From Podospora anserina (lineage: Eukaryota), in assembly GCA_017654855.1 (NCBI GenBank), contig CM030333.1, positions 868,001 to 932,000 on the forward strand: DNA of 64,000 nt, given 5' to 3'. The first letter of the stretch is position 1. Each line of letters opens with the position of its first letter. Under the pieces are notes generated by a model. The model worked only from the letters and a program-made list of their open reading frames with translations. It was not told the DNA's origin and did not search any database. A program made the translations under genes and the position numbers. Positions 2,075 through 26,385 of this stretch are shown here, one piece after another.

Positions 2075-4641
2075 GGTGACCAACAATCGATTCAGATGAC
2101 AGGCGGCAGTCTAAACAACCTGTGCTTTTTTAGAGAGTCGGGAGTTGGCGTGAGGTGGGTGAGTGGTGCGGCGTAATTGGTTTGTTTACTCGGTTTGAAC
2201 CAGTCGCTTCTTTTGCGGTCGTCCGTTGCTTTGTCCGTCGAGTTTGCAAAACCGTGAGCCGCCAGCGTGCAGGTGTCGGTAGAGAGAGCCTGTATTTTTG
2301 GTAAAGAAACAGACTGGAAGATGAAGAACAGCTAAACGAGGCGCTGAGAGAAATTTCGAAGGGAAACCAGGGAAGAATGCGGAATGAAGACGGCGTCGAG
2401 TGAAGAGGCGCGCGCGCGCTGTGAGAATCGAAGGTGGGTTGCTTTTGGTGTCGATTGTTGGCAGGGAGAATAGTACAAAAAGCGAGAGTATGCTGCCAAA
2501 CAACGGCGACCAGTTGGCTAGTTACGCCAATGCTGAGAATTCCGCCACCTTTTCTCTCAAAAACGACAGTGAGAAGAAGGAGATTTTGCAACCATCAAGC
2601 GGATGCAAAAATCTATGTGGTGGTGAGAGGTGGAAATGGAAGTCTGAGTGAGAGAAGCGGAAGACGAGGGAGCATTTGGGATTAGGGGGGTCTGAGAGGA
2701 AACGGGGGACACAGCGCTTGTGTCGCGGTGCAGCAGGTCTTCTGTCGTAATGAGCGCACGGGGGGGGAGCGGGAAGCGCCAATGCCTGCCAACCGTCTCT
2801 GCCAGGGTAGCGCCCGTTAATGCACGCTTGGAGATGAGATCGCCATGTTAGTGCATGACGATACAAATGTCATGACTTGTGCCCAACGGCGGGTCAACCG
2901 CTATCTCGTGGCCGGGTGTTACAGACTGGGCTCTAACAGTTCAACCTCACAGCGCGTAGCCGAGACCGTCGAACCCCTTATTACTCAATGCAGTGCTACT
3001 GTCGGAGAATTCGATTTCTTCATCGACATTCATGATGGATGGATATTTCTCATGAGCAAAACAACAGAATGAAGAGACATTCGTATTGCATTCCAAGAGT
3101 CTTGACGCTTTCTTGGGAGGCGCTGGGCGAGACTTGGGAGGAATCGCCAAGCAGGGAATTTGAACATGTTGTTCTCCGCGAGTTCCGTCATAGCATTCCG
3201 TTCCCTCAACGGTGAGAGGGTGCGATCATCAACACCGCCCCCCTCTTGCGAGCTTTCCAAGATCTTGTCTGCATCTTGCACACGCAAGCTCCATCTCTTT
3301 TCTGTCACTACCAGCCACCGAACCGATAGAAAACGTTGCAAATCCATCCTAGAAATCGGATACGGATTGTAATGAAGGGGACTTGCACAGCCCCCCCACC
3401 AACATCCCGGCAATGAAACGGGAGCGCCCCCCCGCTTCAAAAAGCTCGCTCCGGTCCACGTTTCTGACCAGTCCGTTTTGTCCGTGTTGGTCGCCATGAT
3501 CACGGCTCGTTTTGGGTGGGAAATCGACAGGCAAGAGCAAGAGATGTCATTTGTTTATTTACCACTTCCCTGGTTCACAAGAGGCAGCCTTCATGATGTC
3601 TGCAGATGCGGTGGCGGCCAATCAGGTCGTGACCCCTCCCTCTGATGACATGCAGCAGGTACAAGGTGGTGTTGGGTGTGCCCCTCCAGCCTTCAAGGTC
3701 CAGACCACTGAGGGCGCCAAGAGGTATCCATGGGAAGACGAAATCGTCAGTCTCTTGGGTTTGTGATCCAGAGTTTGGACCTGGAGAAGAAAAGACAAAT
3801 GGAGTTGTCAGTCCGGTCAGTTGCTCCCGTCGAACGCACATCCATGGCGATCTCCCACTCTCAAACATTGGCGTCTCTCGGGAACTGCAGCATGCGAAAC
3901 GTTCCATCTGATGTCCCGCCAAGGGTCCCTGTGGTTATCATTTTTTTTGGTCTGGCCCTCTCTCACGAGACCGCGAAAATGGTGATGGCAGTTGATGAGG
4001 CGGAGCATGTTTGCTCTCTTTTTACGAGCTTGATTTTTGATGACCGGACAGCCTCTCCGGGGGGTGACGCTTGAGTATAAGTCGATACAGTTGAACCGAG
4101 CGCAGCGCTACTTGACACTTGTGGCTGCCGCTGGTCATCCCATGTCGAGCATGAGAAACGGCGACGGTGACACTCATCCTTCAAATAGCTTGGGCCTTCT
4201 TATATGGTGTCCCGTGAAGCCAAATGATCCTCTCGCAGGCACAGGCGCGGCTCCCAGATTAAACAAGATGGACACAAGGTCCATCTGGCTCAAGGTCTTG
4301 ATGGTCACTTACACACAAACTTGGCAGGGGTTAGGGCCCAGAGAGAGAGGTTGTCTAATCTGACCTCTGACTTCCCTCGCTAAAGGGTTAGGGTCTCCCT
4401 GCATCAGCTTTATTAGATGCACACGATAAGATAACGTGTCTCCCACATGCCGATGACCTCATGTGAAGGTAGCTCTAAGCAACCACCCCCACCATCATCG
4501 CTAGCATCACCGTATAGACTAGACAGCTATCGGCGACTATCCTCACTGCATCTTGGAACAACCAACCGTTGAACCGTCTCTGAACCCAAGACCCTGTACC
4601 TAAACTCCCACCCATCTGCCCACCCGGCACCTCCGACAAAC

Positions 4642-20403: not shown

Positions 20404-23400
20404 ATGATACTGCGGGCCGGCTTGGTCGGCCGATCATGTCTGGCTCGAGCCTGTCAACGTCGGTCCCAAATACCCCTTATACACCCCTTACTGCCGCCAC
20501 CACCAATATCCCAAACATCGAGAGTGCAGAGGTCAGAGCAACTGCTGGCCCAGCTCGCCCGAGATGCGCCCTTCACCACTACCACCAGATTGTCCTTCCA
20601 GAGCGACGACTCAGATATCATTCCGCCATGGGAGAAGTCTTTGGGAAAGGTCGACAGTCATATGAGCCCCGATGACATGGAGGAAACAGCCAAGGCGAAT
20701 CCAGATCCTGCGAACAATGTCAGCGAGACATCGCCAGAAACAACACCAGTTCCCTCTTCACTGGGGCCGGAGGAAATAGAAAGGAACTATGCGAGCACAG
20801 CTGAGCCTGGGGTGGCTAGCCACACGTTCAATGCTGCGGATCGGGACAATCAAGTACCCCAACTTGAACCCTACCGTTTCGCCGAGAGGGGAGGAAAGCT
20901 CGCTTGGGGTCCAGGTCACAGAGGCAACTGGTTGGACTCATGGGAGGCCAGGTTCCGGCCGCTGTACAGAGCCCTGAAGTCAGGGCGCGCCTATTCACGC
21001 ATGTTGGCCGATGTGGAGGATTTCCCTGACTGGGGAAAAACAGAGATGCTTTTCGAGGCAGCCGAAATCGAGCAGGGGGAGTTTAAGGAGCGCCACTGCG
21101 GATTTGGCAACGTAGATGAGTACATGGCGAAATGGATGGACTCGATGCTCTACCTGCTCCGCTACGACCCAGAGCTAGCTCCCAAATTTCTCCGGGCGAC
21201 TTTTGAGGGGTTTCTGACGCCGAGGTGGGCGGTGAATGATACGGTTGAGTTCCTTGCCAAATGGTGCTCGTTGTCTCGCTCAAGCAAAAAGACTACGCAT
21301 GAGCTCGCCGAAACGATCCGTCATATTCTGCGGACTCGCACTCTATACATGCTCGAGTTCACCCAACAAACGCTGTTTCTTCTGACGAGAGATATGGAGG
21401 CCGAAGCTCTGTGGAATCTGTATCGGGACCTGCTGCAGTACGCTCACCCGCTTCACCCCTACACTTGGTACACTATAGCCCGTCGTCTTTCTCGGGATCC
21501 GAGGTACAAGTCCAGGGCGTTGGATCTGCTGGAGGAAGCCATCACCAGCGGCGAGCTCCACGGCGACGCGCCCCTGACCATGATGCTCAGCACATGCATC
21601 CTAGACTTTCAAGGTGTGGAAGACGGCCATTTAGAGCAGTTGGGGCGGCTGCGCCGGGAGCTGACCACACGGTTGCTCAACCTGATCACGCCTAACAAGT
21701 ATACATACAGTGTCATGGTCCGAGGCATGCGAGCCACCGGTGACTACCAGGGAGCGTGGACCATCTACCAGATCATGATTGATCAGGGCATCGAGCCTGA
21801 GCAGTTCATCTTCTCCAACCTGCTAAACGTGGCAAAGCGCACCAACACCATCGAGCCTGTGCTCCAGACCCTGGAAGAGCTTGTTCCCGAGGCGCTGAAG
21901 AGCAGGCACATCTGGAACGACATCATCGACTCTGTCTTGGTGATATCTCGGCAGCACGACCTCCAGCTGAAGGAGGAAGGCCAACGGAATGCGCATGCTG
22001 CGTTGACGTTCCGGGCCCTGCTGCTGGTCTATGCAAGGTTCTATCGGTACAAGGAACTCCAGTCTCTTATCCCTGTCAGGCTGGGGCCGCCGTATGAGAC
22101 AAAAGAGCAGGTTTTTGCAACTGCGACCTCAGATATGGATGTTGTCTTTTTGCGAAAGATTGATCTCATCCTCGAGCGCCTTCCTGAGCGGGTTGAGAAA
22201 CCGGCGGTTCCGGGGTCGGATGTCATTAGCATTATGCTCAGGGGGTACACACGAGCGGTTTGGAAGGCGGGAGAGGTTATCAGCTTTTACAAGCGGCTCA
22301 GGGCGAAGCTTATGCAGGGACAATACACCGTGTGTCAGATTTGTCGGGAGCAGGACAGCCGAGTGCATGATGCTATTTTGGGCTCGTTGCTCAAGATTCC
22401 AAAGTGGAACAATGTCGCGTGGGCTCCTGCGGAGAACTCCAAGAGAGCGGCGGAGAGCCGTGATGCGTTGCAGGCGGGTTTTGGTATTTTGGAGGATATG
22501 ATTGAGGGTGCCATGTGTGCGGAGAGGGTGTTGAAGGAGGAAGAGGAGGAAGAGCTGTTGGCGAAGAGGATGGCGGATGATGACTCGCCTGCTGATGAGG
22601 AGGCGGTGCGGACTATCGAGAGTGTCCTGCCAAGTCAGGAGGATGCTGTCTTGTCGGAACAAGAGCCTTTGCTGATCGAGGGGGGCGATGGTCTACCAAC
22701 TGAAGATTCAGCAGCTCAAGATATAATGACCGAAGAACATATTTTAGTCGAAGAACATCCACCACCAGAAGAAGAGCACCGGCCAGCTGAAGAAGATTAC
22801 CTAGCGCCCTCAGAAGAAAACCTGCCAACGAAAGATTACCTTTCGCCCTCAGAAGAAAACCTGTCGACGGAAGTAAACCTGCCAACGGAAGAAAACCTGC
22901 CAGCCCAAGATGGCTTGCCTGTCAAAGATGACCTACCTGTCGAAGAGCAGTACTTACCTGCCGAGGAAGACCTATCGGTCGAAGAAAGCCTTCGAGGGTA
23001 CAAAGAATACCTTCAGGCTGAGGAAGACCTCCCAGCCGGAGAAGACTACCTACCACCTCCAGAAGCCGAACGTCCTGCAACTCAGGAAGAGCTACAGCCA
23101 ACTGAGGACGAAGCCCAAGAAGAACCGCTTCTCACCACCGACCAGCCTCAAGAACCCACCGAACCACCACCCTTATCCGAACCCTCGAAACCATCACCCC
23201 CAGAACAACCCCGACAATCAGCCCCCTCACCCCAGCAACTCCTCCCTCTCCTCGACCCAGACCTCGTCACCCCCCTCCACCCGGCCCCCCGCCCAGGCGC
23301 AGGCTGGCCCTCTTTCAAAGCCCAGCAGGCCCAATGGGCGGCCTTCCACAAAGAGGAAACGTACCTCTACTCCATGTCGCCCGCCCCGACAATCTACACC

Positions 23401-23985
23401 TTTAATATTCTCTTGTCGGGCGTCATCCGCGCCTCCCGCTCCATCACCAACGTCAAAGACTGCATCAAGCAGGCAGAAGACTGGATAAAGTACCTTGCCG
23501 ATCACAACCTCCAGCCCAATTATCACACCTGGGCTATTTTGGTCAGGAACTGGTCGCGGCAGCAGCGGCCCGGGGCGGTGGCGTGGGCGATGAAGAAGAT
23601 GGAGGAGGCGGGGTTTAGGGCTAATAACAAGATGATGGAGGAGTTGCAGTTGTTGAGGGATAAGGAGAGGGCGTGGAGGGAGCTGGAGAGGTTGATGGAG
23701 GAGGATCTGGGGAGGGAGAAGGAGAGGGGAGGGGAGGGGTGGGAAAGGGAGGAGGGGTGGGAGAGGTTGGGGAGGATTGTGAAGGAGCAGGAGGAAAGGA
23801 GGAGGAAGTTGGAATTTGAGTTGGTGGTGGAGGATGAGATGTATGGGAATGAGGTTTATCGTGACGGGAAGGGGGGGGAGAAGGAGGAGAGTGATTGGGA
23901 TATGTTTGTGAAGAGGGTGGAGGAGGATAGGAAGGGGGAGGAGAGGGAGAAGAGGGAGGGTGGGGGGGGGGAGGCGACGTTTTAA
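20404..23985 (+). CDS. Pentatricopeptide-repeat protein, probably mitochondrial, with acidic low-complexity insert
   Basis: 1193-aa ORF with basic N-terminus and PPR-like units (PNKYTYSVMVRG...GAWTIYQIMIDQGIEP, PTIYTFNILLSG, PNYHTWAILVRNW...MEEAGF). Confidence 0.85.
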   Translation: MILRAGLVGRSCLARACQRRSQIPLIHPLLPPPPISQTSRVQRSEQLLAQLARDAPFTTTTRLSFQSDDSDIIPPWEKSLGKVDSHMSPDDMEETAKANPDPANNVSETSPETTPVPSSLGPEEIERNYASTAEPGVASHTFNAADRDNQVPQLEPYRFAERGGKLAWGPGHRGNWLDSWEARFRPLYRALKSGRAYSRMLADVEDFPDWGKTEMLFEAAEIEQGEFKERHCGFGNVDEYMAKWMDSMLYLLRYDPELAPKFLRATFEGFLTPRWAVNDTVEFLAKWCSLSRSSKKTTHELAETIRHILRTRTLYMLEFTQQTLFLLTRDMEAEALWNLYRDLLQYAHPLHPYTWYTIARRLSRDPRYKSRALDLLEEAITSGELHGDAPLTMMLSTCILDFQGVEDGHLEQLGRLRRELTTRLLNLITPNKYTYSVMVRGMRATGDYQGAWTIYQIMIDQGIEPEQFIFSNLLNVAKRTNTIEPVLQTLEELVPEALKSRHIWNDIIDSVLVISRQHDLQLKEEGQRNAHAALTFRALLLVYARFYRYKELQSLIPVRLGPPYETKEQVFATATSDMDVVFLRKIDLILERLPERVEKPAVPGSDVISIMLRGYTRAVWKAGEVISFYKRLRAKLMQGQYTVCQICREQDSRVHDAILGSLLKIPKWNNVAWAPAENSKRAAESRDALQAGFGILEDMIEGAMCAERVLKEEEEEELLAKRMADDDSPADEEAVRTIESVLPSQEDAVLSEQEPLLIEGGDGLPTEDSAAQDIMTEEHILVEEHPPPEEEHRPAEEDYLAPSEENLPTKDYLSPSEENLSTEVNLPTEENLPAQDGLPVKDDLPVEEQYLPAEEDLSVEESLRGYKEYLQAEEDLPAGEDYLPPPEAERPATQEELQPTEDEAQEEPLLTTDQPQEPTEPPPLSEPSKPSPPEQPRQSAPSPQQLLPLLDPDLVTPLHPAPRPGAGWPSFKAQQAQWAAFHKEETYLYSMSPAPTIYTFNILLSGVIRASRSITNVKDCIKQAEDWIKYLADHNLQPNYHTWAILVRNWSRQQRPGAVAWAMKKMEEAGFRANNKMMEELQLLRDKERAWRELERLMEEDLGREKERGGEGWEREEGWERLGRIVKEQEERRRKLEFELVVEDEMYGNEVYRDGKGGEKEESDWDMFVKRVEEDRKGEEREKREGGGGEATF
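22792..22905 (+). repeat. Coding minisatellite: 39-bp duplication followed by 18-bp units
   Basis: gaagattacctagcgccctcagaagaaaacctgccaacg (22792-22830) and aaagattacctttcgccctcagaagaaaacctgtcgacg (22831-22869), then gaagtaaacctgccaacg and gaagaaaacctgccagcc. Confidence 0.85.
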
Positions 23986-24469: not shown

Positions 24470-24800
24470 ACGCCTCCAACCAATGCAAATATGCCTGTCC
24501 CTCCGGTATCAACGCCTAAAACGAATGCAACTAGGCCTCCCAGACATCCTTTGACGCCTCCATTAACCCCGGATATGCGTAGAACAGATGAAAATTAGGC
24601 CTTCAAAAATGTCGAATAGGCCTCCCCCCCCAAACATAAAACGACGCCTCAAACAAGTGTAAACAGAGGCCTATCAGGCATGATTTGATGCCTCCCAACC
24701 AATCTTTTGATGCCTCAAACGAAAGAAAACAGGCCTCTCAAACATAAAAGAACGCGTCCCGGCTTATCTTTTGACGCCTATCCGAACATGTCGGAGGCCT
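24470..24800. repeat. Periodic array of 16 A[CGT]GC[CG]T hexamers with divergent spacers
   Basis: Core G at 24472, 24493, 24514, 24535, 24556, 24577, 24599, 24620, 24646, 24669, 24690, 24712, 24733, 24754, 24776, 24797. Confidence 0.85.
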
Positions 24801-26385
24801 TCCCATTGCCCTCATCGAGCTTCTTTTCCTTCTTCTCCTCCTTCTTCTCCTCCTCCTTCTCCTCATTCTCGGGACCCATAACCCTCCGCACCTCCGGCCC
24901 CGTATAATTCCCCGACTCAGGATTGTACCGACTATTCATATACTCTGTATACTTCTTCATAAACTCCTCCCTCTTTCGTTCATGATGCCGGGTTGCTGCT
25001 CCTGGAGGGGGCCAGCGCTCCTGTTGCGGGGGAGCGGGAGGGGGAGCGGGAAAAGAGGAGAGAAAAACGGGAGGGGTGATGGAAGGGATAGGAGGAGGGG
25101 GGTAACTCGGTGGTAGTGGCGGAGGAGTGCGAGTCGGCATCGGGGGAGGACGATGGGGTGAAGGAGGGGGGGTTGCAGGAGAGTCCGCCAGGGACAGCAG
25201 GGCTAGCTTACCGATGAGGGAGGGGGGAGAGGCGTTTTGGTGGGGCTGCTCTGGCTGGTGCCGCTCGTTTGGCTGGTACTTTTGCTGCTCTTTGGCCGGC
25301 TGGTACTTTTCGTACTGGTGCTGCTGCTCCTCAGCTTGATGGTACCGCTCTTTTGGCTGGTACTCTCGAGACCGCCGTTGCTGGTCTTGCTCGTCCTGTT
25401 GGTACGAGTTATGAGACTCATTGGACTCGTCTTCTTGCTCTTCAGCGACCGGCTGAAGAAGCGGCGACGACGGGGAGAAAGCCGGGCGGGGAGAAGGCGG
25501 CGGCGGCAGGAGAACAAAACTGGGGGGACGGAAAATATCATCCTCTTCGATTTCGTCCCAGTCGATGCTCGGCACTCGTCTGGTGGCATCCCGATAGGCT
25601 TTCGCCCGTTCTTGGGTGCGCTCAGGCTCAGGAGCAAGCTCCAGGCCGGCGGCGGACGACGGCTCGGGGTCGCTTGCTGGGACCGGCGAGTCGCCGAGGG
25701 GGGGGAGAGGCGGGAAGAGTCTGTCCAGGGTTGCCAAAACGTTTTTGGCCTCTTGGGCGTGCTGGGAATTGGGGGCCTCGGGGTGGAGTTGGCAGCTGCT
25801 GCTTGCCGCCGCCCTGGTGGGCGACTCCAGGTCGTCGAGGCAACGACCCAGCGGAAGGTTCGCCATGAACTGCTTGTAATCAAGCAGGGTGAGGTCGTTG
25901 TCGTCGGGCTCGTGGGGGTCCCGGAGCAGCTTTGGTTTGGAGGAGGGGGAGGGAGCGAAGACGGACGAGCTGGTGGCGACGGGGAGGTTGGAGGGGTTGG
26001 AGGAGGAGGAGGAGGGAACGGTGGTGGCAGCAGGAGCAGCACCCTCCTCGAAAAAGGTCGCCAGGCTCTTGACGGATTTGTGGCCTTTGGCCACCGCCTG
26101 GGGGGTCGCAGAGGGCGACACCTTGCGCCCGAGGTTCGAAGCAAAGGTATCTATCGACATTTGTTGTTAGAAAACTCCAGTCAAGTTGATTTCTTCGACC
26201 TTTTTTTGCTCTCAAGTAAGCAAACAAGTGAATAAAGTCGAGCACAAAGGTGAATTTCGAGTAGTCAGTCGCAAAACGGCCGAGTTGCTCGACAGTCTTG
26301 ACTTACCGTGGCTCCGGCGTGGGATCTTCCTCTCCAAGATGAGGCCGGCGAGCGCCCCATCTTCTTTCTTCTCCTTCTTCTCCAT
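24778..26385 (-). CDS. Orphan Pro/Gln-rich low-complexity protein; probable intron 26306-26151, 5' end uncertain
   Basis: 460-aa ORF. Upstream exon MEKKEKKEDGALAGLILERKIPRRSH joins in frame through GTAAGT...CTAAC...TAG; another GTAAGT donor near 26468 suggests further 5' exons. No domain recognised. Confidence 0.6.

Follow-up and report, generated by a model that had tools for sequence, protein, structure and literature searches.

Two related MITE families of Caenorhabditis, CERP2 and CELE2, are described in excerpts of bioRxiv 10.1101/2022.01.21.477252 as having spread a motif of fixed spacing that is kept in gene-associated copies. The motif studied here in Podospora anserina is likewise kept in gene-associated copies and lost elsewhere. 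The CERP2/HIM-17 system, as those excerpts present it, differs in that its motif pair is a germline promoter with a known THAP protein, whereas the Podospora reader is putative. The Podospora motif also forms lattices of 5-16 units, located at either end of genes, in introns or within coding sequence, and the window copy lies at a 3' end. A second comparable case is that of the VANC targets in Arabidopsis VANDAL elements, which passages of PMC5735166 describe as oriented motifs of 8-9 bp confined to a transposable element with its own protein. There, too, a short motif has been amassed as tandem repeats in DNA transposons, and its density matters. The Podospora site, in contrast, is symmetric, strictly phased and best kept in host genes, and no encoding element was found for it.

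Neurospora MSUD provides the third comparison. According to sections of bioRxiv 10.1101/573907, 6-bp units at a period of 21 (6H-15N), or of 22 in another frame, are read as paired, whereas periods of 17-20 and above 23 are not. The 6H-15N and 6H-16N designs share with the Podospora arrays the six-base unit, the period of 21 or 22 and the unrelated spacers. They were, however, designed as identities between alleles, arbitrary in sequence and 1500 bp in extent, whereas the Podospora arrays are natural, short and non-allelic, and repeat one degenerate word. By analogy, the window array would act most like the MITE co-option of Caenorhabditis and the VANC target repeats.

Two Podospora MITEs that carry a 21-bp unit of this kind, discodeles and mantella, have already been catalogued, in the portions consulted of PMC8105982 Table S3 and PMC10787394 Supplementary Table 2. 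Within a limited library of literature, we found no description of the 21-bp lattice that these two MITEs share or of core-conserved copies at host genes. What appears new here is the transposon-linked phased site array whose cores are kept at host genes; the MITEs themselves are known by name.

A phased hexamer array between two convergent genes

The window, that is, the whole stretch of 64,000 nucleotides of P. anserina DNA that was analysed, contains 16 cores of the type A[CGT]GC[CG]T at positions 24470-24800. The array sits between two convergent genes, and the features of the locus are as follows.

24470-24800, no strand: 16 symmetric hexamer cores of the ABGCVT type, arrayed with a 21-bp period and randomised spacers of 15-20 bp
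Core starts: 24470, 24491, 24512, 24533, 24554, 24575, 24597, 24618, 24644, 24667, 24688, 24710, 24731, 24752, 24774, 24795
24624-24631, plus strand: C8 run in the sole 26-bp unit, a phase shift of 5 bp; the next unit, of 23 bp, adds 2
20404-23985, plus strand: pentatricopeptide-repeat gene of the PODANS_2_1480 cluster, its 3' end 485 bp before the array
24778-26150, minus strand: exon 2 of a proline-rich, Podosporaceae-restricted gene without Pfam match
26151-26306, minus strand: predicted intron of 156 nt with GTAAGT donor, CTAAC branch and TAG acceptor (from sequence inference)
26307-26385, minus strand: predicted exon 1 of 26 codons, whose product agrees with the orthologs of Triangularia setosa and Apiosordaria backusii at the N-terminus
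24774-24780, minus strand: core 15, which shares bases with the stop codon of the minus-strand gene (TAG, 24778-24780)
24795-24800, minus strand: core 16, in the codons K-A-S near the protein C-terminus

The earlier note, made from the letters alone, had listed 16 consecutive cores with their spacings, and the number and every interval were reproduced. Ten spacings are of 21 bp, three of 22, one of 23 and one of 26, the register being off 21 in five units. The coincidence of the 26-bp spacing with a poly-C run was also verified. Such density is peculiar to this segment, as the second-densest 330-bp stretch of the window holds only four cores. A shuffle check gave the same answer: when the window was resampled 200 times under a first-order Markov model, the longest core run was 3, against the 16 observed.

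It had been expected that tandem-repeat finders may miss the array, and Tandem Repeats Finder indeed made no call over it at score 30. The description of the spacers as unrelated held in that they lie near shuffle level, and did not hold entirely, since the ten 21-bp units show a slight mutual likeness (pairwise identity of 0.316 against 0.276 in shuffles, a level reached by 26 of 2000 shuffles). The statement that the array is not a current seven-residue coding repeat agrees with the presence of stops in all six frames across it. On the plus strand, its first six units read as T/M/R-P heptads. BLAST of the array region against its own genome returned the self-match only, with no second copy, and an Rfam search gave a single match with an E value of 0.5, which fell outside the array. 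One further DNA run spans the array with identical sequence. Three runs presumed to be RNA yielded short contigs only, at a depth of 2-4, which covered the array in part and left most of the minus-strand gene uncovered.

The minus-strand gene is, by inference from its ortholog number and its neighbour, Pa_2_1490, and its four relatives are all from Podosporaceae. It probably has an upstream exon of 26 codons and an intron of 156 nt, as the resulting 483-aa form fits the N-termini in T. setosa and A. backusii. The start ATG of the 460-aa database protein falls within the predicted intron. That the array begins in the last codons of this gene was confirmed, with core 16 in the K-A-S codons and core 15 over the stop. 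The K-A-S residues are identical in the P. bellae-mahoneyi ortholog, and read-through of the TAG would add just 20 residues before the next stop. The pentatricopeptide-repeat protein on the other side contains an acidic insert with an 18-bp coding repeat (window positions 22813-22946; Tandem Repeats Finder score 90).

A genome-wide family and two MITEs with the same unit

A scan of the genome for periodic clusters, which had been suggested as a check, revealed that the array is not a singleton but one member of a genome-wide family, and the reversed-pattern controls remained empty. In the 36-Mb genome, three in-phase cores were matched at least 131 times by the forward and at least 134 times by the reverse pattern (overlapping matches, both strands), against 0/0 for the reversed-pattern control. 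Four cores at exactly 21 bp were found at least 109 times in the genome and not once in the control.

The family was compared through 71 distinct arrays from fetched genome stretches, which form a sample and not a census. Spacer identity to the unit consensus covers an unbroken range of 0.25-0.80 over these arrays, which were classed by age into 33 young, 19 intermediate and 19 old ones, the old ones being single-copy for the most part. Relics of MITE ends are present in 23 of the 33 young and 3 of the 19 intermediate arrays, and in none of the 19 old ones. Fourteen of 43 arrays, including that of the window, have no BLAST partner among the arrays compared. Viral contigs contained 68 loci with a five-core pattern, all of them ordinary tandem repeats with a spacer identity of at least 0.64. 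Because none of the 68 matches falls below that value, ordinary repeats do not yield the core-only pattern. When metagenomes were scanned with the discodeles end, the one match was a chance hit in low-complexity sequence.

Two MITE families carry the 21-bp unit, a link that the earlier note had missed. One has a length of 130-260 bp, CAC..GTG ends and an exact 5-bp TSD in 14 of 25 copies, and its internal 21-bp unit has an AGGCCT-type core; its coordinates map, with smoothly drifting offsets, to MITE_discodeles rows in the part consulted of PMC8105982 Table S3. The other, of 270-460 bp with GAG..CTC ends and an 8-bp TSD that is exact in 6 of the 12 scored and off by one in 3 more, carries the 21-bp unit internally and maps to three MITE_mantella rows of the same portion of that table. 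The discodeles (L002, L009, L024-L049) and mantella (L218-L244) elements have unrelated ends and TSDs of 5 versus 8 bp, and a common 21-bp repeat; their subterminal AT-rich blocks are also alike. CAC ends together with a 5-bp TSD are a signature of Transib, to which discodeles might belong; no transposase was found for it. In fungi, passages on Transib mention it from soybean rust only. A search for an autonomous element among 20 TIR loci, examined at 8-9 kb, turned up nothing beyond short or broken elements, and three MULE-domain loci had neither TIR family nor flanking arrays. Passages on chromatin report MITEs to be free of H3K9me3 and not of H3K27me3.

Judged by its sequence, the window array belongs to neither discodeles nor mantella, as it has no ends and no spacer match. 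It resembles discodeles in having an internal 21-bp unit with an AGGCCT-type core. Unlike discodeles, it is without a CAC TIR, as determined by a weight matrix over the window and a profile HMM in the 400-bp flanks, and without a TSD, there being no ends to anchor one. Its spacers show an identity of 0.33-0.39 to the discodeles unit, with scores that 216-645 of 2000 shuffles reach (400 of 2000 for one score of spacers against a MITE unit), and it consists of 16 units with intact cores and no BLAST match. The GAG..CTC TIR of mantella, whose ends differ from those of discodeles, and its 8-bp TSD are absent from the flanks of the window array, and mantella cores are decayed, with 20 of 73 intact. 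Among the TE rows consulted in PMC8105982 Table S3, none covers the expected place of the array on chromosome 2. We infer that the 21-bp unit of the window array shares ancestry with the internal repeat of discodeles and mantella, and that the window copy is probably of MITE origin. Because the copy has no TIR and its spacers fail to match the MITE unit, this origin rests on the gradient over the 71 arrays.

Unequal decay of cores and spacers at host genes

The decay of cores was followed in MITE controls, which were picked by their ends and whose cores were read only between spacer matches 21 bp apart. In 17 discodeles regions, 5 of 21 cores fit ABGCVT, and identity was 0.79 for cores and 0.80 for spacers. 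The 16 mantella copies gave a similar picture, with 20 of 73 cores fitting and identities of 0.76 and 0.80, respectively. The window array, with 16 of 16 cores intact, differs from discodeles and mantella at Fisher 2e-6 and 4e-8, respectively. In old arrays, 118 of 151 interior phased positions are intact, a figure that is inflated because old arrays were found by their cores and the MITE control cores by spacers.

A mutation test free of this bias made use of arrays retrieved with a search pattern that left core positions 2 and 5 open (N). Changes to A, or to T on the mirror side, are transitions, of the kind made by RIP. This transition (AAGCCT/AGGCTT) made up 1 of 64 changes in ten old arrays, compared with 23 of 44 in 13 young ones (p 2e-10); in other words, the commonest mutation stood against all others at 1 versus 63 in old and 23 versus 21 in young arrays. 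Its scarcity in old arrays means that selection is needed. Of 154 old cores, 55 were unchanged, 84 carried one change and 15 carried two. Information in the old arrays is confined to the hexamer, with flank positions at or below 0.10 bit, and the trace of the MITE spacer, an A at +7/+8, fades from 0.73 in young through 0.60 in intermediate to 0.40 in old arrays.

The suggestion that conserved cores and period with diverged spacers reflect selection was thus strengthened, as both the MITE controls and the mutation test show decay to be unequal beyond neutral. The opposing case, a decayed minisatellite, is half true with regard to origin, which probably lies in a MITE repeat, and false for the present state because cores diverged more slowly than spacers. 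Taking these several independent signs together, we conclude that the window array is under selection.

The position of arrays relative to genes changes with their age. With coding segments called by a heuristic codon model, which misassigned at least L064, L080 and L090 among the old arrays, a coding-like segment is at most 150 bp away for 13 of 19 old arrays, compared with 1 of 33 young arrays and 0 of 18 discodeles-TIR copies. The median distance to such a segment is 39 bp for old and 496 bp for young arrays. The sites include gene starts, stops, introns with full splice signals (L074, L083) and coding sequence, and the neighbouring genes are ordinary ones, unrelated to one another. Published chromatin peaks at five array-associated genes revealed no common state, with H3K4me3 at one, H3K27me3 at another and none at the remaining three.

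Several of the individual sites can be described more closely. An AFG2-like AAA gene has arrays at both ends (L082:508-660 and 3023-3133), of which the first ends about 45 bp before the ATG, possibly within a 5' UTR intron, and the second begins immediately downstream of the stop; the final codons themselves contain a near-core that is in phase. At a SNF2/RING gene (L089:2973-3189), the array starts at the stop and overlaps the TAG as in the window gene, and a second array (L089:5355-5528) lies upstream of a branch site and acceptor. A glutamate synthase intron is filled by an array (L074:2977-3108), and the next exon (809-2944) encodes a LAGLIDADG-type homing-endonuclease domain, probably an intein. 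Several old arrays are present at ribosome-biogenesis genes, namely those for Rix7 (L076:2985-3074), the AFG2-like protein (L082), a DEAD-box helicase with an SPB4-type extension and the Noc3/Utp10 divergent pair (L058 and L086 for the last two).

Two arrays lie inside coding sequence, those of Rix7 and PODANS_3_2815, and are read in different frames. In PODANS_3_2815, the lattice appears as [DKE]-A-[SFY] every seven residues. The Cercophora samala ortholog keeps 5 of 9 full fits, and in the A. backusii ortholog 15 of 15 in-phase positions are alanine, both flanks fitting the DNA word at 12 of them. When the alanine lattice of the latter was held fixed, none of 20000 shuffles matched both flanks. 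Several of its heptads resemble a translated MITE unit. Within the P. anserina complex, two last-heptad alanines and one lysine are changed, and no additional orthologs emerged when the PODANS_3_2815 alignment was used as a search profile.

The frame used in Rix7 gives R/T-P heptads, of which C. samala keeps 4 of 5 dipeptides and T. verruculosa one. The last two Rix7 cores fall in an ancient motif, which is R-Q in 52 of 62 scored relatives and R-H in the P. anserina complex and C. samala, where it completes the word. Since this change came without a linker longer than in relatives, cores can arise in place. Two Lasiosphaeria Rix7 proteins likewise have 5 of 6 heptads in a TP-rich linker. As far as the protein sequences tell, the coding arrays persist across genera, both of them in C. 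samala and one also in A. backusii; protein-level selection might still act on either coding gene taken alone.

What may read the lattice

We hold with moderate confidence that the array is a co-opted lattice for a putative sequence-specific dsDNA-binding protein, with one site per two turns. The site would be a two-fold symmetric hexamer, A-[CGT]-G-C-[ACG]-T, and its repetition every two B-DNA turns would place neighbouring dimers on one face and permit cooperative binding. Copies that landed in UTRs, introns or flexible coding linkers would have been retained by the host, and as ends and spacers decayed, selection would have held the cores and their phase. The protein would thereby be the selective agent, and its binding presumably cooperative.

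The distribution of core variants bears on this proposal. On the sense strand, the ratio of AYGCCT to AGGCRT is 35:4 in the 11 arrays at 5' ends and 18:35 in the 13 arrays at 3' ends. The two free core positions track local strand composition, and the allowed set is equal on both strands, which points to a symmetric double-stranded ABGCVT site and not to an RNA word. Among the explanations offered in the earlier note, putative protein sites on one helix face fit best, by virtue of this symmetric degeneracy and the polarity flip between gene ends. As a counterpoint, the helical phase is broken by the 26-bp and 23-bp units in the window array. If a protein does read the lattice, it would represent an undescribed fungal DNA-binding system, for which a bait is ready and AAGCCT serves as a built-in negative control. 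Such a system would be strong enough to shape both codons and residues of Rix7 and another protein across genera.

The lattice could instead be read by DNA itself, a possibility that we consider unlikely, though the strongest of the alternatives. In a direct DNA-DNA pairing code, hexamer identities every 21-22 bp would pair intact duplexes without recombination. Pairing would then be open to any two arrays, whatever their register or relative orientation, and could loop gene ends or gather loci into clusters; MITEs would carry the lattice to unite their own ends or copies. The intervals of the window array, 13 of 15 being 21 or 22 bp, are consistent with such a code, and so is the common lattice of discodeles and mantella, whose ends are unrelated and whose TSDs differ in length. 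In old arrays, one-base gains exceed losses (10:4), which is not the case in young arrays (3:13; p 0.009). Both this difference and the mild rarity of double changes that destroy both 4-bp halves of a core (15 versus 21 expected, p 0.04) also speak for pairing. However, identity pairing leaves unexplained the exclusion of A at position 2, where C and T are tolerated, and 21+22 and 21+20 triples are equally common genome-wide (17 versus 18 matches, no bias). The arrays measure at most about 330 bp, compared with the 1500-bp segments of the Neurospora assay, and MSUD is apparently absent from P. anserina, according to a passage of the 2008 genome paper. Since allelic copies are identical anyway, selection for pairing would need ectopic pairing. 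If DNA did read the lattice, the arrays would be a natural substrate of the kind that the direct duplex-pairing model for RIP and MSUD calls for, the first known to us. The question could be tested with two natural arrays in the existing Neurospora assay. A true pairing code would be genome-wide, with the geometry that proved optimal for synthetic DNA in Neurospora; it would have been spread by two MITE families and kept at the ends of genes, in introns and even within coding sequence so that non-allelic loci or both ends of one gene can pair.

It also seems rather improbable that the array is the relic of a vanished transposon lineage, whose transposase or anti-silencing protein once needed the cores. 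The present copy would then be neutral, and its spacers would have drifted over many transposition cycles. The presence of the unit in two MITE families and the continuous gradient of spacer identity agree with such a history, as does the evolution of VANC targets as motif-bearing tandem repeats in TEs, described in passages of PMC5735166. Against it stand the absence of a TIR and of a second genomic copy at the window array, which is among the arrays without BLAST partner, the gene-proximal bias of old arrays, and persistence across genera inside host proteins.

An RNA-level element in the 3' UTR, whether as a landing pad to which an RNA-binding protein attaches or as a substrate for processing or for phased small RNAs, had been put forward as well, and appears quite unlikely. 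Old arrays do overlap or adjoin transcribed regions, namely UTRs, introns with complete signals in two cases and coding sequence in two, and folding of the window array beats dinucleotide shuffles, with z of -2.2 on the minus and -3.6 on the plus strand. When cores were fixed and spacers shuffled, however, z was only -1.2 on the mRNA strand, where 13 of 120 controls fold as well, and -2.1 on the other strand. A landing pad is disfavoured by this folding, which on the mRNA strand is no better than in spacer-shuffled controls, and by the sense-strand word, which flips between 5' and 3' arrays. A phased small-RNA substrate fits poorly with a 21 register broken five times and with no mRNA-strand structure beyond the cores. 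Moreover, the excluded variant is the G-U-compatible AGGCUU, and Rfam gave no weighty match.

Directed mutation, in which short-patch conversion between arrays or from MITEs rewrites cores in phase without host benefit, is in our estimation very doubtful. The R-H change of Rix7, which shows cores arising in place, speaks for it, but MITE copies, which would be the best templates, stay unrepaired, and if conversion drove cores towards AGGCCT, 63 C/T variants against 1 A variant would not remain. We know of no mechanism that rewrites cores in phase in a directed manner. Lastly, a decayed seven-residue coding repeat or an ordinary minisatellite, noticed through core-based picking, deserves next to no credence: 21 bp does equal seven codons, the first six plus-strand units do read as T/M/R-P heptads and L080 may be a protein-level TP repeat, but stops lie in all six frames, the coding copies use different frames, Tandem Repeats Finder makes no call, spacer identity is 0.32 against at least 0.64 in 68 of 68 viral-contig matches, and neutral MITE controls lose their cores, so that shuffle-level spacers, MITE core decay and the spared transition rule it out for the present state.

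Among the fetched stretches, one of 3.2 kb (L256:3094-6302) has inverted repeats of 186 bp and 82 bp bounding a 321-codon ORF without Pfam match. Paired arrays flanking transposed cargo genes were also considered and rejected, since the neighbours are unrelated ordinary genes and the pair at L063 is one array split by pelobate. Copies of the pelobate-type Tc1/mariner element, 91% identical, are located inside that one array (L063:3213-5175) and about 50 bp from another (L252:6966-8927), and it is possible that pelobate prefers inserting at arrays.
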